Shown here: piece after piece, positions 3,422 through 29,396 of the stretch
Layout of the letters: each line of letters opens with the position of its first letter
How positions within the stretch are numbered: the first letter of the stretch is position 1
IMG/VR virus record: IMGVR_UViG_3300037801_000099
Location: 1 to 51,371 of that record
DNA: 51,371 nucleotides
Strand: one strand, 5' to 3'
Source: a virus
Lineage: Duplodnaviria > Caudoviricetes
Program-made: the position numbers and the translations under genes
Notes under the pieces: model-generated
Told to the model about the DNA's origin: nothing
The model's input: only the letters and a program-made list of their open reading frames with translations
The model's database searches: none

Positions 3422-3609
3422 GCCGCATGCCCTGCAGTATCACCGACGGACCGCAGTACGACGACGATGATTTCAAAACGCCAACGTACGAACGCGACCC
3501 TGACGACGCCTACGACGAATGGCGTCTAACCCAAATCCGTAACCCGAAAACCGGAAACCTTGAACCGTTAATCACACCTCATGTAGGAGATAAAGATGAG
3601 AACCATTAG
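3418..3609 (+). CDS. Small acidic hypothetical protein
   Basis: GGAG RBS; coupled overlap. Confidence 0.65.
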   Translation: MSRMPCSITDGPQYDDDDFKTPTYERDPDDAYDEWRLTQIRNPKTGNLEPLITPHVGDKDENH

Positions 3610-4594
3610 ACCAAGTGATCTCACAGCAGAGATCAAAGCCAACGCACTCGCTGGCATACCAACGATGATCTGGGGCGGCCCAGGCGAAGGTAAGTCAGAG
3701 ATCGTGTATGGCGTAGCTAAAGAAATGAACGCCAAGCTGTTTGAAATACGCGCCAACCTGTTTGACCCAGTTGACGTACGTGGTGGCTTAAAAGTTGTCG
3801 AGCAAGAAGACGGCACGTACCGCACTCGGTACGGTGTGCCTGAAGACTATCCCGACTCTAACTACCAAGGCACTGTAATCATCTTCATTGATGAGCTCAG
3901 TACCGCACCCAAAGCCACTCAAAACTCACTGTTGCAACTTCTTACTACTCGTAAGATTGGTACGTATGAGTGTCCCAAAGACACCATCTTCATTGCAGCT
4001 GGTAACCGCGCAATCGACCGCGCTGCAGTTCACGAAATGCCGACGCCTGTGAAGAACCGCTTCAGTCACTTCACCCTCGAGGCAAACATCGACGATTGGG
4101 TAGCGTGGGCAGTTAACTCGCACATCGATCCGTCAATCGTGAGCTTCCTGCGTTACCGCCCGCAGCTCCTGAGCGACGCAGACGCAACACAGAATGCGTT
4201 CCCGACGCCTCGTGCCTGGGATTACGTCAGCCGCAAACTACCGTTTATGTCTGATGAGTTCTACGGTGTTGCATCACTCGTCGGTGACGGGCCCGCTGGT
4301 GAATACATCGCATTCAAGCAGATCTACCAAGAAGTGCCTGACATCGATGTCATCCTCGAAAAGCCAACCACCACCCGCGTACCAACTGGCACCTCAGTAC
4401 TGTACGCAGTTTGTGGCGCACTGACTGCTCGCGTCGATGCAGACAACTTCGAAGCAGTAATGAAATACGCGAAACGCATGCCACCTGAGTATCAGGTAAT
4501 TGTTGTTCGTGACTCACTCGCAAAGGATCGCTCGCTCATGCAAACCGAGCACTTCACCAAATGGACTCAAGAAAATGCTGACGTTTTACTATAG
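3596..4594 (+). CDS. MoxR-like AAA+ ATPase
   Basis: Walker A GGPGEGKS, Walker B IIFIDE, AAGN sensor, NRF arginine finger, TPRAW. Confidence 0.92.
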   Translation: MRTIRPSDLTAEIKANALAGIPTMIWGGPGEGKSEIVYGVAKEMNAKLFEIRANLFDPVDVRGGLKVVEQEDGTYRTRYGVPEDYPDSNYQGTVIIFIDELSTAPKATQNSLLQLLTTRKIGTYECPKDTIFIAAGNRAIDRAAVHEMPTPVKNRFSHFTLEANIDDWVAWAVNSHIDPSIVSFLRYRPQLLSDADATQNAFPTPRAWDYVSRKLPFMSDEFYGVASLVGDGPAGEYIAFKQIYQEVPDIDVILEKPTTTRVPTGTSVLYAVCGALTARVDADNFEAVMKYAKRMPPEYQVIVVRDSLAKDRSLMQTEHFTKWTQENADVLL

Positions 4595-4603
4595 GAGGTA
4601 AAC

Positions 4604-5314
4604 ATGGCTTCAGTAAGAATGACCAATGAACTGCGAGACACTATCCGTCGCAACGCAGAAAATGCATACGACTTAGCTAACCCCGAACCCAAACCAAGTA
4701 CCGAGTACATAGATCGCGTACGTAAAGCCGTAATCAACAGCCCCGCACAAAAGTTCTTGAAAGATATGGCAGAGCTTGGCGCAGAACGCGGGATCACTAA
4801 GCTGGAAAATGGCAAACAGAAAATCGTGCCATTTGCTAACAAAGATCCAATCACTGGCGTCGACCTAAAACGTAAAGCTCCCAGTCAAGGTAACCCATTG
4901 CACGCTGAGCGACACACCATCAAGTTCGCTACTCAAATGCACAAGTACTACGTCACCGAAGAAAACTACAACCGTTGGGGCAACCCAGACGTTTGGGTAG
5001 AAGACTTCGAAGATGACGACCGTCTTGAGATTATGGACCTGTTTGCTAAGCACGAAGCTGCACACGACACTTGGTTTGGCGAAAAACAATCTTACGAAAG
5101 AAGCATCAGAGATCTGCTCGATAGCGTAACAACGCTCAAGCAGCTTTTTGAAATCTGGCCAGCCGCAGAATCACTTGTGCCTGCTGACAAGATTCAAAAG
5201 ATGCACACCAAAGAAAACCGTAAGCAACAAGCACAACGAGTCAGAGAAGAAGTCAACTTTGACCCGACCATCGCTAACCAAGCAGTACTCACGGCTAAAA
5301 TGCTAGGAGGTTAA
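4604..5314 (+). CDS. Nmad5-like (nucleotide modification-associated domain 5) protein
   Basis: N-terminal RMTNELRD and C-terminal LLDSVTTLKQLFEIWPAAESLVP resemble Nmad5 family signatures (from memory). Confidence 0.6.
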   Translation: MASVRMTNELRDTIRRNAENAYDLANPEPKPSTEYIDRVRKAVINSPAQKFLKDMAELGAERGITKLENGKQKIVPFANKDPITGVDLKRKAPSQGNPLHAERHTIKFATQMHKYYVTEENYNRWGNPDVWVEDFEDDDRLEIMDLFAKHEAAHDTWFGEKQSYERSIRDLLDSVTTLKQLFEIWPAAESLVPADKIQKMHTKENRKQQAQRVREEVNFDPTIANQAVLTAKMLGG

Positions 5315-5315
5315 T

Positions 5316-6416
5316 ATGTCCGCCGAAAGCGACATGCTCAAAGCTCGGGCTCAACTGCTAATGGATCAGCCGTTCTTCGGCACATTAGCGTTGAAACTCA
5401 AGCTGGTGCAAGACGACGAAGGCTGTGATACAGCCGCTACCGATGGTACGCGGCTCGTATACAACAGTAAGTTCGTCAGTAAGCTCGACACCGTTACACG
5501 CAAAGGTCTCATTGCGCACGAAGTAATGCATTGTGTGTTCAACCACATGACGCGTCGTCAGCAACGGGACCCTAAGCTGTGGAACATCGCCACTGACTTT
5601 GCCATCAACCTTCACCTTCTAGACTGTGGCTTCGTGCTACCCGAAGGTGGTCTTGTCGATAAGCAGTACAAAGACATGTCTGCCGAAGCGATCTACAACA
5701 AGCTCGACAAAGACAACCCGCCCAAACAATGCCCTTGGGGCATGGTTATGGACGCAGGCGCAGGCCAAGTGCAAACAGGAAGCAACGCAGCGATGGAGTC
5801 CGACTGGCAAATAGCTGTGACTCAGGCGGCTGAAGTTGCCAAACAAGCAGGCAAGCTCCCTGGTCAGATGGAAAACTTCATCCGAGACATCGTCAAACCC
5901 GTCGTTGATTGGCGGAGTGTGTTGTGGCCTTTCTGTACGTCGCTTACTCGTGACGATTACAGCTGGCGCAAACCACACCGCGCATACATCAGTGAAGACG
6001 AGTACCTACCGTCGATGCTCAACGAAGCTGCAGGCCACGTCGCAGTCATCATTGATTCGTCTGGTTCTTGTCAGGATTACTGGGAACAGTTCCTTGGCGA
6101 AATGTCTGCTATCCATTCAGAACTGCGACCATCTCAGATGACAATCATCCATTGCGACTACGACGTAGCACATGTTGATGAGGTCGACCCTGACGACCAG
6201 TTCCCAATGACGCCCATTAAAGGCGGCGGTGGCACTGCGTTCAAACCAGCGTTTGATTACATCAATGAGCATCATCCGGAAGTAGAAGCGGCTGTGTATC
6301 TAACGGACCTCGAGTCACACGACTTCGGTGACGAGCCACCCTACCCTGTTCTTTGGGTTTCTACGGAGAGACACGACGCCCCTTGGGGACAAACCTGTTA
6401 TATTCAGCTTGATTAG
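5316..6416 (+). CDS. DUF2201-type metallopeptidase + VWA domain protein
   Basis: TAATDG and HEVMH (HExxH) N-domain; MIDAS DSSGS, GGGGTAF, LTD. Confidence 0.9.
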   Translation: MSAESDMLKARAQLLMDQPFFGTLALKLKLVQDDEGCDTAATDGTRLVYNSKFVSKLDTVTRKGLIAHEVMHCVFNHMTRRQQRDPKLWNIATDFAINLHLLDCGFVLPEGGLVDKQYKDMSAEAIYNKLDKDNPPKQCPWGMVMDAGAGQVQTGSNAAMESDWQIAVTQAAEVAKQAGKLPGQMENFIRDIVKPVVDWRSVLWPFCTSLTRDDYSWRKPHRAYISEDEYLPSMLNEAAGHVAVIIDSSGSCQDYWEQFLGEMSAIHSELRPSQMTIIHCDYDVAHVDEVDPDDQFPMTPIKGGGGTAFKPAFDYINEHHPEVEAAVYLTDLESHDFGDEPPYPVLWVSTERHDAPWGQTCYIQLD

Positions 6417-18232: not shown

Positions 18233-18445
18233 GTGGAAGCGTTATTGCTAGACAAATACGGCCCTTTTATGGACCTCGAGGAGCTGGCCGAGCTGCTCAG
18301 AATAAAAAAACAATCTGTATACCAACAAATCTATCGTGGCCAACTTGATATGCCGCACGTACGACGCGGCAAAAAGTATCTTTTCCCAACACAAGAAGTA
18401 GCCAAGTACTTCACATCCCAGCTAAATCTTCCGCACGAAGGTTAA
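18233..18445 (+). CDS. xis: Excisionase-like HTH protein
   Basis: MDLEELAELLRIKKQSVYQQIYRGQL P..R.GK (HTH_17 type); AGGAGG RBS; convergent with int. Confidence 0.82.
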   Translation: MEALLLDKYGPFMDLEELAELLRIKKQSVYQQIYRGQLDMPHVRRGKKYLFPTQEVAKYFTSQLNLPHEG

Positions 18446-19406
18446 CGTACCTTGAAAGCTGATCAAGCGTACGGTGACCTGACACCACTCGCACCTGCTC
18501 AACTCTCATACCCCTCTCAAACATACGGCTAATAGCTTCATGACGCAGATCGTGGAATCGCAAGTCTTCAATCCCTACTTTCCTCCGTAGTTTGGCAAAC
18601 TTGTCTGAAATGGACTCAGACTTCTTTACATAAAACAGGTTGTCCCCTTGTTGAGCTGTGTTTCGTGCGCGTAGGAGCGCCTCTCTCACGCCCTCCAACA
18701 GGGGGATTTTCTCGTCTGAGCGCCCACCTTCAGCCTTTTTATTCTTCCGTTTTAAGTGGATCACACCAGAGACTTCATCAATATCTGACCACTTCAAGCG
18801 GTGAATCTCCCCCTGTCTCATCCCTGACTCCACAGCTATATCGATTGCTGTGCGAATCCAATGGTCTCCCGCCCCTTCCATCAATGCGTCGTACTCCCCT
18901 GGGCCCAGGCGTCGGTCTCTTCTCTTGCTACCCATGATGATTTTCTTTTTCTTCAGTTCATCGATAGCCATATCCACAACAGCCTGCTCAGTTTTTATCC
19001 TGCTGTTCTCGACTGCTTGCTTCATGTAATACATCTGAGTCTGCAATGTACTTGCGCACACGCTCTTCCGACGATGTGCCGCAAAGTCGAGCACGTCATC
19101 AAAAGTCAGATCGTGTATTGATACACCGAAGAAATACTCTTTGATTTGATGCAGCTGTCCCAACTTGGGGCCAGCGACCTCCAAACCAAACCGCTCAAAT
19201 GAGTAGATAAGATCATCAATCATATTGTCGATGAGCACGGACCGCGTTTCACGAGTATCGATCCACGATCCGTTGTCCATCGCTGTTTCAATGCGGCGAC
19301 CCCATGCTAGAGCCGCGCCTTTAGATTTGAAGGTTTTCTGTTGAGTAGTTCGGCCTTTTGATTTAACGATTGCTTGCCAACCGCTGCCGCGCTTCCGTAC
19401 GTGCAT
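18411..19406 (-). CDS. int: Tyrosine integrase
   Basis: GMRQGEI, FHDLRH, SGH and catalytic Tyr (LSRY). Confidence 0.96.
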   Translation of the reverse strand: MHVRKRGSGWQAIVKSKGRTTQQKTFKSKGAALAWGRRIETAMDNGSWIDTRETRSVLIDNMIDDLIYSFERFGLEVAGPKLGQLHQIKEYFFGVSIHDLTFDDVLDFAAHRRKSVCASTLQTQMYYMKQAVENSRIKTEQAVVDMAIDELKKKKIIMGSKRRDRRLGPGEYDALMEGAGDHWIRTAIDIAVESGMRQGEIHRLKWSDIDEVSGVIHLKRKNKKAEGGRSDEKIPLLEGVREALLRARNTAQQGDNLFYVKKSESISDKFAKLRRKVGIEDLRFHDLRHEAISRMFERGMRVEQVRVVSGHRTLDQLSRYVNLRAEDLAGM

Positions 19407-24373: not shown

Positions 24374-24814
24374 CTACCACAAGACTGAAGCAACGTTGTG
24401 CCGTGCGTACCCTTTAACAGGGCCATACTCCAGCGTGGTTTTGTTAAACACAAACCCCCAGAAAATGATCTCATCACAATCGTCAGGAGTAGTCGGGTAT
24501 AGCAGCCCCTTATCGCCGCAAAACTGTTGTATTACAGCTGGTGATGCTTGGACGTAAGCGTCGATGAAGTCTGAACGTGTGCCGTCTTGAGCGTGTGTAA
24601 TAGCAAAAAACGTAGAACCTTCTGGAAGCTCGGGTTTTTCGCCGTCATAGTCATTTACAACTACCTTTAACTGAACAGTATTTGCCTCTAAATCAAACTT
24701 CAATCCGTACCAATTCTTTAGGTTCGATTGCCGATAACTTGTACTAAATGCAAGTTGTAGAGCTTCGCTTGGGTAGTCCCGCCTAACGACCGCGCCGTCT
24801 ATCACTTGATTCAT
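24374..24814 (-). CDS. Hypothetical protein, short paralog of 24825-25505
   Basis: Shares NLK.WYGLKFDL, KPELP.G, GFVFNK.TLEYG.VKGYA. Confidence 0.85.
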   Translation of the reverse strand: MNQVIDGAVVRRDYPSEALQLAFSTSYRQSNLKNWYGLKFDLEANTVQLKVVVNDYDGEKPELPEGSTFFAITHAQDGTRSDFIDAYVQASPAVIQQFCGDKGLLYPTTPDDCDEIIFWGFVFNKTTLEYGPVKGYARHNVASVLW

Positions 24815-24824
24815 ATAAACCTCT

Positions 24825-25505
24825 TTAGCTCGTGTAGCGTTTTGCGTAGCCTTTTACGACTCCATACTCCAATGTGGCTTTGTTAAAAACGAACCCGAAA
24901 CACACTATGTTCTCCACATCCCTCTGCGACAAATCGTCTGGGAATGGGTACTTCAACCCTTTGGCTTCGCAAAAAGCCTTTATCTTTTCTGGGTCAGCAC
25001 CCGCCACATAGTAATCAACCCAATCGGACATGCTTTTGTCAGGGCTGTGAGTAGTCGCAAAAAACTGATCAATACCCTTCGGCAACTCAGGCTTATCGCC
25101 ATCTACGTTTCTGACGACACACTTGAACAGCACTTCATCTTTGGTGAGATCAAACTTCAGGCCATACCAGGCTTTTAGATTTGTCGTAGTTTGGGAGACG
25201 CCGTATTTCTCTATTAAAGAAAAAGGGGGTTTTGAAAACATGTCATAAAAGCTGATGCTTGAGTTTTCATATGGCTCCCGATACCCATCGTATGCGCCTA
25301 TTATGTTGTAGCGACTAAAAGGTAATGAGTGGTCTGGGTAGGCTGACTTTACCTTGGAGCAAAGCACTTCCCCCTCACTGGATTTCATGGGGTAGTCTTG
25401 GCGAACTATTTGTTTGTCGACGTATATGTCATCTCTGCCGTCAGAATGCCCATTCCAAGTCGCCTGTATGGCAGGATTTAGGTTTCTTGGCCCAACCTTA
25501 ATCAT
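24825..25505 (-). CDS. Hypothetical protein, long paralog of 24374-24814
   Basis: AGGAG RBS before ATG 25505; shared motifs. Confidence 0.85.
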   Translation of the reverse strand: MIKVGPRNLNPAIQATWNGHSDGRDDIYVDKQIVRQDYPMKSSEGEVLCSKVKSAYPDHSLPFSRYNIIGAYDGYREPYENSSISFYDMFSKPPFSLIEKYGVSQTTTNLKAWYGLKFDLTKDEVLFKCVVRNVDGDKPELPKGIDQFFATTHSPDKSMSDWVDYYVAGADPEKIKAFCEAKGLKYPFPDDLSQRDVENIVCFGFVFNKATLEYGVVKGYAKRYTS

Positions 25506-25506
25506 G

Positions 25507-25863
25507 CTATTGCTCCTGAATTTCAGAAACGTCTTTTTCTTCAACGTCTTTTAGTGACATTTTTTTCTGCAATTCTGCTTCGTGATAAGGCAACAACTCG
25601 TCCAAAAACGAATCGCCTCCTTGATGATCTAAAGCCATCTGCAATATCTGCTGTTGGGTGAGATCAGCAAACGCTATGAAGCTATCAGACAAAGCATCGG
25701 TGTCTAAAATAGTCTCCACTCCCGCAACGCTCCAAACTTGTTCGGGGTAGGTAGTTTCAAAAAAGTTGATCTCCCACCGAACAACCTTGCAAATGTCTGT
25801 TTTGCCGTCCTGCTCTGGGATTGTCTTTAGTGCGACTAGGGTCGCGGCGTAGTCAATGTGCAT
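25507..25863 (-). CDS. Fibre-associated small acidic protein
   Basis: FIAFADLT...I pattern recalled from proteins adjacent to phage fibres. Confidence 0.6.
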   Translation of the reverse strand: MHIDYAATLVALKTIPEQDGKTDICKVVRWEINFFETTYPEQVWSVAGVETILDTDALSDSFIAFADLTQQQILQMALDHQGGDSFLDELLPYHEAELQKKMSLKDVEEKDVSEIQEQ

Positions 25864-25864
25864 T

Positions 25865-26569
25865 TCACTGGTCCTGTAAAGGTAAACATTTAGCCAAGCC
25901 GACTCTCAACTTCGAAGCCCGCTCAGCAGTTTTTGATGCCAGTTCCTGTACGCCTATAAGACCTTCTGAAAATGGCAACGCTTTTTCCAAGGCATAAGCA
26001 AACATCTCGTTACCGTTTGCTGCTCCTCTTTCAAACACGTCTACATAGTTAAATACGGATGCTTGCTCTGCGAGCATCCCGTAATCCATTGCCACTTTTG
26101 CGCTAATTGCTTTCGCAACAATCGGATCACTTTTGTGGTTCATATGGCGCGGCATACGTAGACGTTTAACCCGCGCCAAAACACCCTTGTCTGTCTTGGG
26201 CACCCTCACCCATCGCTTTGGGTTGATCAAAAAGATCGACAAATCCAAAACCTTTTTGTTGAGTTTGCTCCCGATCAAGCCATACACATGGCTGTTGGAC
26301 CTGTTATCAGCAAACACTGCGGATCGACTTACACAAATGTCGTACCTCTCGAGCAGCTCCTGCTTAGGCAAATCACCATCTTGAATGTCCAAGATGACCC
26401 CGCTTTTAACCACCAAACAAAGCTCGTCGGCGTGCCGCAAAGCTGTTGGTATAAATCCGCCTTCGTAACTAACTACCTTGTAGTCCCAATCAGGCATGTT
26501 TTGTCGAATGCTATTAACCGTTAGCGCGGTTAAGTGATTGCACTCGATTACCAAAATTCCTAGGCGCAA
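25865..26569 (-). CDS. Glycosyltransferase-like protein (GT-A/GT8-like, DxD degenerate)
   Basis: LTVNSI..N, CLVVKSGVI at the DxD position, SIFLIN...W, MP..MN, VFNY follow the GT8 motif order. Confidence 0.5.
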   Translation of the reverse strand: MRLGILVIECNHLTALTVNSIRQNMPDWDYKVVSYEGGFIPTALRHADELCLVVKSGVILDIQDGDLPKQELLERYDICVSRSAVFADNRSNSHVYGLIGSKLNKKVLDLSIFLINPKRWVRVPKTDKGVLARVKRLRMPRHMNHKSDPIVAKAISAKVAMDYGMLAEQASVFNYVDVFERGAANGNEMFAYALEKALPFSEGLIGVQELASKTAERASKLRVGLAKCLPLQDQ

Positions 26570-27416
26570 CGTGTTCCTCCTGACCGTATTGGAAAAAGAA
26601 TCGATTTATCCGCTCTTGCGGATACTCGATATTCGCGGGGATAAGCCCCGAGTCCTTGCAAGACAAAATAGCCTTTAGCTTGTCTGCACTTAATTGGCCT
26701 TTGTCCAATAGGGCTCTGTATATCGCGCTGTACGTGCACCACTGGTCGTCTTTACTAAAACTGTAAACGGTCTTGCCTTTGGCTAACGCCGCAATACCCA
26801 TCTCAGAGTTCTCACAACAGCCGACAATCTGAGCGTTATTCAACAACTCGTGCCCCGACACCTTCTTCTCAATCACCGCATCACCGTACTTGTGTACAAG
26901 ATGCTCATAAGCTGATGCCGCTGTAAGTGGGTGGCACTTCAATTTCGCACCCTGGGCGACCGCCTCATCTACTTTTTTCCAATCAGTAACCTTGTCGAGA
27001 ATGTTCGTACCAGCAAGAAAAATGACGTATTCGTATGCCAAACCTTTCTTTCTCAGCCGGTACTTATCTCCACAGTTATTCGCCATTTCAGAGAAAAGCC
27101 GTTCACCTTCTTCTGTAATGTCGGTCTTCACAGCACGCTTCATGGCCTCGGTTGCCCACATACGGCTTGCAACCCTGATGTACAAAAACTGAGTTAGTAC
27201 ATCCGTGTACACATACCCATGAATGCGTTGATCACTTGGAAAGTCATACCAAACGTCGTACTCGACTTTCGTATCGTTAATCCACTTCTCTGGAACTAAA
27301 GACTTCAACTGTGTTAACTGGTCGTTGTCTCTGCTCCGTAAAACATTTCCAGATTTAAAGAAGTGGGCAACTGGGTTACCCAGTTCGTCTTTATCTGCGA
27401 GCTTCTTCAAGGTCAT
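26514..27416 (-). CDS. Glycosyltransferase-like protein (GT-B; KpsS/KpsC capsule-synthesis-like)
   Basis: DKY, K.HP and LL..A..V....NSEMGIAALAKGKTV motifs. Confidence 0.65.
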   Translation of the reverse strand: MTLKKLADKDELGNPVAHFFKSGNVLRSRDNDQLTQLKSLVPEKWINDTKVEYDVWYDFPSDQRIHGYVYTDVLTQFLYIRVASRMWATEAMKRAVKTDITEEGERLFSEMANNCGDKYRLRKKGLAYEYVIFLAGTNILDKVTDWKKVDEAVAQGAKLKCHPLTAASAYEHLVHKYGDAVIEKKVSGHELLNNAQIVGCCENSEMGIAALAKGKTVYSFSKDDQWCTYSAIYRALLDKGQLSADKLKAILSCKDSGLIPANIEYPQERINRFFFQYGQEEHVAPRNFGNRVQSLNRANG

Positions 27417-27534
27417 TCCTAAGTCTCTCCACCTCTTCCTCGAGGGCTGATATTCGATCTTCTGTTTCGCTGAAGTGCTCCATAATTATTTCCAGAGCGT
27501 TCTCCAACTTCCCGTTAATCTCTCTGAAGTCCAT
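27391..27534 (-). CDS. 47-aa coiled-coil protein (MDFREINGKLENALE...)
   Basis: Read by hand; GGAGG RBS, TAATG coupling; heptad pattern. Confidence 0.7.
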   Translation of the reverse strand: MDFREINGKLENALEIIMEHFSETEDRISALEEEVERLRNDLEEARR

Positions 27535-28799
27535 TAGTCCTCCGTCCACTGAGAGCCATCCCAGTAGCTCGCGTTGTGTGCGCTGCCGCTGGTCACTTCA
27601 GTCTGATTTCCGGTCGCGGTTAAGCGTTCGTAAACCACGGTTGATGTATCGCGGCTCGTGGTCGTTGATCGACTAGTGCCAGTTTCATGACTAGTAGATC
27701 GCGTAGTGTCAGTGTTAAACGCAGTAGTCGTATCGTGACTAGTGCCGTGTGACGTGCCAAACGTAGTCGTAGTGTCAAACGAGGTCGTTGTGTCGTGGCT
27801 TGTGCCAAACGTAGTCGTGTAAGACGTACTCGTGGACTTGCTGGTGCCAAACGTAGTCGTGGTGTTGTATGAGGTTACCGTTGATCTATTCGTTGAACGC
27901 GATGTGTTCCAGTATGTAGTCCAAGTAGTAGTCGTTGATCTGCTAGTGCCCTTCGATGTCTGCCAAACAGTCGTCCAACTAGTGGTAGTCGATCTGCTAG
28001 TTCCGCGAGATGTTGATCGAGAATGGCTGTTAGTTTTTTGGCGGTAAAGGCTTGCGCTACTAGTATTGTAGGCAGTCGTCTGAGTCACACCCCGATAGTA
28101 CGTCCACCCGCCACTGGTGACAGAGGTTGCGGTTACCCCTGTTGACACAACTATTGATGAGCCACCCCAGTAAATATTTGCGGTTGTCGAAAGTCGTACC
28201 CAGTTATACACCCCAACTGTGTAGTTATACCCTGAGCTAGGCTCTCTGGTAGTGCTAGACCAATATGTCGTATAGGACGTATTCCAACTAGTGGTCGTTG
28301 ATTTGCTAGTGGATCTTGTAGTGTTGTAATAGGTTGTCCAGCTAGTAGTCGTTGATTTGCTAGTGCTACGAGCAGTCTGGAAAGTAGTATTCCAAGTGGT
28401 AGTCGTGCTTCGGCTTGTCCCTGTTGCGCGGCTAGTGTTGTACGAGGTTGTAGTGTTGTGAGAAGTCGTACGGCTCGTGTTGTACGAGGTCGTAGTTGAT
28501 CTCGATGTCCCTGTAGCACGGCTCGTGTTGTACGAAGTGGTATAGCTAGTCGTAGTAGCGCGAGACGTACCCGTAGCAAACGTAGTGGTATACGTAGTCG
28601 TAGTATCAAATGAAGTAACCGTAGAAAAAGCTGTCGAGGTGTTGCGACTAGTCGTATAAATCGCGTTCCAAACAGTTGTTAACGTACCGTTATTGTTAGC
28701 TACAACATAGTTAACGCCATAAAGCGTACCCGAATCTCCTTTCGCAAAGATTTGGGTAGGCTCTTTTAGGGTGCCACTGTCGTTAACTTTGATAGACAT
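27534..28799 (-). CDS. Thr/Ser-rich fibre/appendage protein with self-complementary beta-hairpin arms
   Basis: Two T/S-rich arms (about aa 48-184 and 257-390) around a non-repetitive core. Confidence 0.85.
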   Translation of the reverse strand: MSIKVNDSGTLKEPTQIFAKGDSGTLYGVNYVVANNNGTLTTVWNAIYTTSRNTSTAFSTVTSFDTTTTYTTTFATGTSRATTTSYTTSYNTSRATGTSRSTTTSYNTSRTTSHNTTTSYNTSRATGTSRSTTTTWNTTFQTARSTSKSTTTSWTTYYNTTRSTSKSTTTSWNTSYTTYWSSTTREPSSGYNYTVGVYNWVRLSTTANIYWGGSSIVVSTGVTATSVTSGGWTYYRGVTQTTAYNTSSASLYRQKTNSHSRSTSRGTSRSTTTSWTTVWQTSKGTSRSTTTTWTTYWNTSRSTNRSTVTSYNTTTTFGTSKSTSTSYTTTFGTSHDTTTSFDTTTTFGTSHGTSHDTTTAFNTDTTRSTSHETGTSRSTTTSRDTSTVVYERLTATGNQTEVTSGSAHNASYWDGSQWTED

Positions 28800-28808
28800 G
28801 GCTGGCCC

Positions 28809-29396
28809 TTAGCTCACTACATACCAGATATGTCCGTTAGCAAAGCCACTTGCGCTGGTAGGAGCCGTAGTGACAACAGATTGTGTTCCCGCATTATTGA
28901 GCTTCGTATGATCTGCATCAGTAAACACATTTGAGTCACTGGCACTTTCGACTAAAGCTCTAATCTCTGCCGCTGTTTGGTCAGCAGTAGCGCTTGCTTC
29001 AATCCCATCGAGCTTCGTCTTCAAAGCATCAGTGAAATTGTTCTGAGTCAGACCGCCATCGCCCACAGAGTAAGTTGTATCGGTGTCGGCTTGAGTAGCA
29101 ACATCATTCAACCCAGCTGCAGTCAGTCGAATCTCTGCTTTATCAGCAGTGCTAAACGTGCGCGCAGAGGTGTTGTCTTGCCCCCTGGTAATCGTCAGCG
29201 TGTTGCCACTCCGAGCCGTACACTTAACGATCTCTTTCAGTGTAGGGTCACTGTCTACTTCTAGCGTTAGATAAAAGTAGTCGCTACCAGAAGGCGATGG
29301 GAAAACAGACCCATCAGCCACTGTAATAGATGTGGCAGAGTCTCCAACGCCCGCTGATAAGGTAGTGCTCGCGTTGTTTAAAAATAAAACTGACAT
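28809..29396 (-). CDS. Fibre/appendage structural protein
   Basis: NNASTTL..ITVADG..EIVKCTAR..LTITRGQD.T.A pattern of phage fibre N-domains. Confidence 0.72.
   Translation of the reverse strand: MSVLFLNNASTTLSAGVGDSATSITVADGSVFPSPSGSDYFYLTLEVDSDPTLKEIVKCTARSGNTLTITRGQDNTSARTFSTADKAEIRLTAAGLNDVATQADTDTTYSVGDGGLTQNNFTDALKTKLDGIEASATADQTAAEIRALVESASDSNVFTDADHTKLNNAGTQSVVTTAPTSASGFANGHIWYVVS

Follow-up and report, generated by a model that had tools for sequence, protein, structure and literature searches.

The 51-kb virus record IMGVR_UViG_3300037801_000099 (51,371 nucleotides; the whole stretch is called the window below) encodes a Thr- and Ser-rich protein of 421 amino acids (aa) with two arms that are complementary to each other residue by residue. 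This mirror feature is real. We read the protein, with a probability of roughly 0.7, as a long two-stranded antiparallel beta-ribbon with its register written in the sequence, which would serve as a thin stalk holding a variable head off the virion.

The protein contains 136 Thr, 74 Ser and 26 Gly, and its arms are 58% Thr plus Ser with a net positive charge. The original prediction, made from the letters of the window, had listed 26 aromatic:basic pairs between the arms. All of them were found at a single register (i+j=441), and the next-best registers gave 11 pairs. The irregular spacing of 4 or 6 residues was mirrored between the arms as described (25 gaps mirror exactly), Y157, Y179 and Y296 were indeed off-register aromatics, and the tip domain lies where it had been placed (Table 1). 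Two regularities had been missed. In every one of the 26 pairs i is even, and the remaining 36 of the 62 positions on the paired face are all Thr:Thr. The opposite face of the arms carries S, T, N, A, G and D. The chain would fold back on itself, with one face made up of Thr:Thr or aromatic:Arg/Lys/His pairs throughout. Only one register satisfies the 4/6 pattern, in agreement with the earlier claim that the aperiodic spacing fixes the register.

Aromatic:basic pairs at the best register were scored under three null models with 20,000 shuffles each. A full shuffle reached a maximum of 15 pairs (mean: 9.6), shuffling of the gaps and classes of arm 2 a maximum of 17, and shuffling of the classes with positions kept a maximum of 22, compared with 26 observed. 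Among the 54 open reading frames (ORFs) of at least 100 aa in the window, the ribbon ORF had a mirror z of 18.6 and the runner-up 4.2. A DNA inverted repeat was considered and rejected: arm-1 DNA matched reverse-complemented arm-2 DNA at only 52–113 of 369 bases (nine offsets). A separate study has two runs (X3 and X4) whose contigs hold pieces of the gene with zero to one differences, no piece spanning the whole gene. An RNA run (X19) holds a relative with a different tip, which does not show transcription.

No family match to the ribbon protein was found in Pfam, PHROGs or NCBIfam, and its profile (A1) had no match among PDB sequences at E values up to 10. A tblastn search of cultured phages with the low-complexity filter on returned nothing, and an Atlas look-up gave nothing usable (best 0.86).

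Homolog searches yielded 59 viral loci and 37 proteins, among them 66 distinct full-length relatives (282–1534 aa); 31 of 97 sequences were left out of the register-anchor count as duplicates, partial sequences or proteins with other caps. For 61 of the 66 relatives, adding 7 to the sum of the two terminal anchors gave the best aromatic:basic register. Of the others, two tied for first, two were off by one residue and one was shifted. The gapped arm-to-arm alignment comprised 77 sequences, after eight of 85 had been left out because the anchor pattern was not matched. One ungapped shaft register was kept in 73 of the 77, with up to 846 residues per arm; in nine of the 77, shifts fell inside the tip only and were not counted as shaft shifts. 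Relatives gain or lose units in both arms together, their pair spacings are almost all 4 or 6, and the number of pairs per protein ranges from 26 to 141. The proposed check, that arm lengths and aromatic/basic swaps be compensated between the arms of homologs, was passed.

The majority of the 6768 face positions in the relatives were Thr:Thr (3674), followed by aromatic-basic (1939), aromatic-other (666) and other pairs (336). Basic-nonaromatic (117), aromatic-Thr (27) and aromatic-aromatic pairs (9) were rare. The idea of a cation-pi zipper was therefore too narrow as a rule: Thr:Thr is the commonest pair, and the 666 aromatic-other positions pair aromatics with N, L, Q, I, A and V. When the register was slid by 2, aromatic-basic pairs fell from 1849 to 19–20, and no second coded register was found at ±2 or ±4. 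The orientation of the pairs swaps freely, with the aromatic in one arm or the other in 970 versus 879 cases.

The strict two-residue parity points to an antiparallel beta pair. Several relatives have no tip, and their mirror runs into a loop of two to six residues. Four relatives of 1400 aa (L030, L039, L040 and L051) have a three-residue Arg-Ser-His loop after three tyrosines and no tip domain. In KVP40.0254, a related phage protein, the closing pair T139:S142 is off-face. By the rules of beta-hairpins, an off-face closing pair would place the coded pairs at non-hydrogen-bonded sites, where they would serve both as folding register and as side-chain core. The original estimate of about 40 nm per strand agrees with the geometry: 123 residues at 3.2–3.4 Å give 39–42 nm if fully extended. 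The reach would be set by stalk length, about 40 nm in this protein and as much as about 280 nm elsewhere in the family, the extended length of the longest relatives being about 270–290 nm. Taken from homolog compensation, parity and the tight-loop relatives, the proposed out-and-back antiparallel path is supported, and a self-paired ribbon is very likely.

The ends of the protein are conserved and its tip is not. Mean identity of the N-cap in 43 homologs was 67%; for the caps in general it was 67–71%, with values of up to 94–96%. The C-cap has invariant columns in the A1 alignment, and by the register it would return beside the N-cap. The upstream fibre ORF varies widely in relatives, from <100 to >700 aa and including collagen-like forms, and the same short C-terminal motif was found in all 44 loci with an ORF of at least 80 aa ending just before the ribbon. 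A predicted complex of the N-cap with three C-termini of the upstream fibre reached an ipSAE (interface score) of 0.85 (runs: 0.85, 0.87 and 0.77), and the best of the controls (n=3) reached 0.01. Contact agreement was at least 96%, and the predicted local distance difference test (pLDDT) of the partner was 80–84. The ipSAE mark is reached by 116 of 157 solved and two of 215 mismatched pairs, counts that are only roughly valid for this prediction.

In the predicted complex, each fibre copy touches one hairpin of the N-cap (near K4, F18 and V33). In this model, one chain would use its three-hairpin N-cap to bind the trimeric upstream fibre at its conserved C-terminal strands, in a ratio of 1:3, which suggests one ribbon per fibre tip. 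A sequence search for a comparable known complex found none. The original prediction had placed both termini at the virion anchor. For the N-terminus the modelled docking supports this; the modelling job covered the N-cap, and the C-cap stood outside it.

The tip (aa 186–255) had a mean identity of only 21% to the 43 homologs (a maximum of 41%), around a conserved core of W211, G230-G231, Y234, R236 and R253. A hypervariable tip against conserved caps is the pattern expected of a binding head. Hence, the ~80-aa tip is likely such a head and would recognise the host or another surface. The fibre may be placed on the tail or on the head, because the cassette follows capsid genes in a SAR92 prophage.

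Two enzyme-like genes and a small ORF lie downstream of the ribbon gene. The 47-aa coiled-coil-like ORF overlaps both neighbours, and a like ORF was found in 60 of 71 loci with a crude filter. The protein is possibly a fibre chaperone. In phages DLP6 and KVP40, too, small coiled-coil genes stand ahead of the KpsC-like gene. Of 59 loci, 51 have the KpsC-like gene after the ribbon, and the other eight end within 270 bp; the gene with a fold of glycosyltransferase family 8 (GT8) is present in 48 of 59.

In the KpsC-like protein, K160, H162 and P163 (K-x-H-P, the HP motif) were invariant in 22 of 22 divergent homologs. Five of 28 members matched PF05159 weakly (best E 7.9e-4), and weak matches to GT52 and KpsC also occurred. 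Against PDB, the HP motif and the next strand-helix segment aligned at E 0.22, and four of five matches were KpsC. The GT8-fold protein was modelled by AlphaFold2 (AF2) with a pLDDT of 93. Its top match in VIA was GlyE (5gvv; Z 12.3, root-mean-square deviation 3.3, 180 aligned), all 13 VIA matches at Z ≥8 were of glycosyltransferase type, and Foldseek agreed weakly. None of the 27 members matched GT8 in Pfam.

Searching from the KpsC-like gene gave 79 loci, 39 overlapping earlier contigs and 40 new. A mirror gene was located at most 1.3 kb upstream in 30 of the 40 new loci, and one was too short. At L116–L121, L135, L137 and L139, the KpsC-like gene adjoins the small terminase gene, away from the ribbon, and the GT8-fold gene is there too on contigs that extend far enough. 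A ribbon-family match was found elsewhere on the contig in three of five tested terminase-side contigs.

The same pairing code was also seen joined to different caps and inserted into other proteins. Mirror-like Thr-rich segments are inserted or fused in P0063, P0067, P0117, P0036 and P0086, and P0117 seems to hold two. A scan with one protein of a short-cap family as query gave five loci, all with a KpsC-like neighbour. Among cultured phages, Lullwater gp41 and BL199 gp042 of Caulobacter phages are mirror proteins (0 of 2000 shuffles), and the Lullwater gene directly follows a tail-fibre gene. Quill gp041 (L065 2322–2967), also from a Caulobacter phage, fails the mirror test as annotated; the missing arm end is in another frame, and the gene looks frameshifted. 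The baseplate wedge of DLP6 is mirror-coded in its C-terminal part (37 pairs, 0 of 1000 shuffles), and the same genome carries a KpsC-like gene. KVP40.0254 and 6E35.1a p0320 are mirror proteins accompanying the KpsC-like gene; KVP40 as a carrier of that gene without a ribbon was accordingly rejected.

The Schizotequatrovirus mirror gene (L153 1449–1982, L154 2501–2686) was missed by the newer annotation and hence by its virion proteomics. The 94 proteins reported for 6E351A virions (PMC12028318, Tables S4 and S8) include neither the KpsC-like nor the coiled-coil homolog. The absence of the mirror protein there is uninformative, because the annotation does not call its gene.

In the SAR92 clade bacterium H921 (L144, 6078–11558), a siphovirus-type prophage has the complete cassette of collagen fibre, 988-aa ribbon and the two enzyme-like genes, located between its capsid genes and its head-tail genes. 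This is a host hint for the relatives, not for the window phage. At L143 (8917–12444), ribbon paralogs of 307 and 270 aa flank both enzyme-like genes.

Altogether, the KpsC-like gene was found no more than three genes away from a mirror protein in the ribbon family, the short-cap family, Caulobacter podoviruses, KVP40-type phages and the SAR92 prophage. Since it accompanies mirror proteins in unrelated cultured phages, glycosylation is suggested. Phage glycosyltransferases that modify virion proteins have been reported for mycobacteriophages, according to the available text of PMC11600133 (citing Freeman 2023). We give about even odds to O-glycosylation of the ribbon by its neighbours, in which the KpsC-like and GT8-fold proteins would modify the Ser/Thr face and the small coiled coil would help them.

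Several results weigh against the ribbon reading or its enzymatic part. The homologs are related and partly redundant, so the homolog counts are not independent events. Uncompensated shaft shifts of 20–44 residues occurred in four of 77 relatives (L026, L052, L056 and L144); these shifts may be genuine loop-outs or mis-assembled repeats. The monomer prediction, proposed earlier as a check, bore out only part of the architecture. AF2 gave the N-cap (aa 1–40, pLDDT 86–89), the tip (aa 201–260, pLDDT 60–82) and the strands E170–186 and E247–267, and left aa 49–150 and 267–410 below a pLDDT of 50, with a predicted template modelling score (pTM) of 0.31. The Atlas model was useless (pTM 0.12). Region 129–285 of the AF2 model resembles long beta-hairpins with a Z of no more than 4.4, and Foldseek with this low-confidence model found no match at E ≤0.001, which does not show a novel fold. 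As most of the arms stayed under a pLDDT of 50, the ribbon rests on covariation, not on a model.

Moreover, a mirror protein was seen in no virion proteomics. The PF05159 matches of the KpsC-like protein scored 16.5–18.4 bits, below the cut-off of 20. The GT8 enzymes bind metal through a DxD motif, and the GT8-fold protein has no conserved DxD in 27 sequences. The KpsC-like gene stood beside the small terminase and not the ribbon in nine of the 40 new loci, and in KVP40-type phages it borders a block of queuosine and nicotinamide adenine dinucleotide (NAD) genes. QXXXD, the nucleophile motif of the KpsC/KpsS transferases of beta-linked 3-deoxy-D-manno-octulosonate (Kdo; family GT107) in the available text of PMC10148158, is not kept either: the preceding strand (G136-T-N138, a position assigned by us) has no conserved Asp four residues on.

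The arms could also pair within an oligomer, as three hairpins forming a six-stranded gp37-like needle or as arm 1 with arm 2 of another chain. A face of small residues might suit the lining of a narrow barrel or a face-to-face packing of ribbons, and the gp37 needle, as far as its available descriptions go, is itself an out-and-back trimer. In the predicted complex, however, the N-cap by itself takes up each of the three docking strands, there is a single coded register, and the tight loops at the mirror centre of several relatives favour pairing within one chain, so that we regard an oligomer as unlikely. An artefact of low complexity, DNA duplication or assembly has next to no chance of being the explanation. 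The sequence is repetitive and repeats can mis-assemble, as the four shifted cases may illustrate, but all nulls fail, the DNA holds no inverted repeat, other runs carry the same letters, and the code is complementary instead of identical and survives divergence. The nulls, the anchored homolog registers and the register-slide test refute this explanation.

It is quite improbable that the protein is a host-surface or secreted product of infection and no part of the virion. That the mirror protein lacks virion detection and that the related gene of KVP40-type phages lies outside the tail block would fit such a role; its position in the virion block after a fibre gene, the predicted docking, the same code fused to the DLP6 baseplate wedge and the Lullwater gene directly after a tail-fibre gene would not. 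More serious, though still less likely than not, is a real ribbon with neighbours that are transferase-derived folding chaperones or that act on different virion proteins or on the surface of the host. The two missing catalytic motifs and the nine loci with a displaced KpsC-like gene are in line with this, and positive arms with an intrinsic pairing code may need no glycan. The HP motif invariant across 22 divergent homologs, the KpsC-like gene near mirror proteins in several phage groups (in DLP6 in the same genome) and the Thr and Ser content of the arms argue for a glycosylated ribbon instead.

The mirror-ribbon gene sits inside the virion gene block, after the fibre gene. The positions of the cassette are given in Table 1. 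The sequence of the window was seen in seawater metagenomes. Its P22-like portal, SU10-type adaptors and internal virion proteins, found in Pfam and PHROG searches, suggest a podovirus, and an integrase gene suggests a temperate phage. Adjacent ORFs of 146 and 239 aa at 24374–25544 (-) share motifs and appear paralog-like, with no family match. The regions 3596–6416 (+) and 18411–19406 (-) hold MoxR-like ATPase, Nmad5 and DUF2201/VWA genes and the integrase.

Table 1. Positions of the ribbon gene, its parts and its neighbours in the window
Feature	Position	Strand	Basis
Mirror-ribbon gene, 421 aa	27534..28799	-	No Pfam, PHROG or PDB sequence match
N-cap, aa 1–48, three beta-hairpins	28656..28799	-	AF2 and predicted complex with upstream fibre
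Arm 1, aa 58–180	28260..28628	-	Register analysis
Tip domain, aa 181–260, hypervariable, likely binding head	28020..28259	-	Homolog identity, AF2
Arm 2, aa 261–383, mirror complement of arm 1	27651..28019	-	Register analysis
C-cap, aa 388–421, conserved	27537..27638	-	Invariant alignment columns and anchor rule
Upstream fibre gene, 195 aa	28809..29396	-	PHROG tail-fibre matches to E 1e-20
Conserved docking peptide, last ~22 residues of upstream fibre	28812-28877	-	Shared motif, predicted interface
47-aa acidic coiled-coil-like ORF, unlisted, between ribbon and KpsC-like gene	27391..27534	-	ORF inspection
KpsC/Capsule_synth-like protein, 300 aa, candidate cytidine monophosphate (CMP)-sugar transferase	26514..27416	-	Weak family matches, invariant K-x-H-P
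GT-A fold, GT8-like protein, 234 aa, without conserved DxD	25865..26569	-	AF2 and fold search

The T4 gp37 needle (PDB 2XGF) is, in the available text of PMC9659904, PMC3004832 and PMC12028318, a six-stranded homotrimer of about 150 x 25 Å (~15 nm) with metal ions in its core, and it has an antiparallel beta needle, an out-and-back chain and a receptor-binding head at the far fibre end in common with our reading. For the ribbon, the out-and-back path with a distal head comes from covariation, not from a structure. In contrast to gp37, it is predicted to be one chain of 40–280 nm with a Thr:Thr plus aromatic:basic code, and there is no sequence match. HxH metal-binding motifs line the core of the gp37 needle; none was found among the arm histidines of the ribbon (H114, H335, H351, H355 and H371). 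The T2/S16-type gp38, a variable adhesin with a helical adaptor and a polyglycine sandwich, sits as a single copy at the end of a trimeric fibre whose gene is its neighbour. A single chain on a trimeric fibre tip is also what the modelled complex predicts for the ribbon. Unlike the ribbon, gp38 is not known to have a long stalk, and the ribbon has no GP38 or Gp38_N match in Pfam and no glycine-rich head. Atlas structural rows gave template modelling scores of ≤0.28 to the ribbon. It would work like a gp38-type adhesin and resembles gp37 in its chain path, and it belongs to neither.

Of the enzyme-like neighbours, the KpsC-like protein shares with the KpsC/KpsS enzymes of GT107 the HP motif and the following strand-helix segment. 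It differs in the QXXXD position and the sub-threshold Pfam score, and in being phage-encoded beside a Thr-rich fibre. GlyE of S. pneumoniae decorates a serine-rich adhesin; the GT8-fold protein of the window shares its GT-A fold, lacks the conserved DxD and would act on a self-paired hairpin, not on a cell-wall-anchored repeat chain.

The cation-pi ladders of thrombospondin type-1 and WSXWS proteins and tryptophan zippers likewise steady beta strands by cross-strand aromatic:Arg stacking without a globular core. They are a few residues long and periodic, whereas the ribbon family has an aperiodic, heritable code of 26 to 141 pairs. The CryoSeek glycofibril TLP-12 (10.1101/2025.09.30.679562) is, in its available text, also a thin beta-based fibre with a Ser-linked glycan coat, but it is a parallel triple beta-helix of dodecapeptide repeats with alveolate candidates, not a hairpin. 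The available parts of the Pam3 and phiKZ structure papers contain no such fibre. A literature search for the pairing code, with most subscription papers outside its scope, found no description.

Our tentative broader view, to which we give slightly less than an even chance, is that of a widespread, undescribed class of phage fibres. These would have a protein code like that of an RNA stem, one register over as many as ~850 residues per strand, mirrored insertions and varied adaptors in podo-, sipho- and myoviruses, with a KpsC-like enzyme adding host-derived Kdo or nonulosonic sugars. A two-stranded, single-chain ribbon of tens to hundreds of nm that has a readable code and lacks a globular core would represent a novel filament design. 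It would also offer a natural dataset for rules of beta-sheet register that current predictors miss. The reading can be tested directly in its carriers, namely the Caulobacter phages Lullwater and BL199, DLP6, KVP40 and the SAR92 prophage. With it, phage biology would gain a receptor stalk that is modular and tunable, and it points towards glycosylated virions among phages with Gram-negative hosts.
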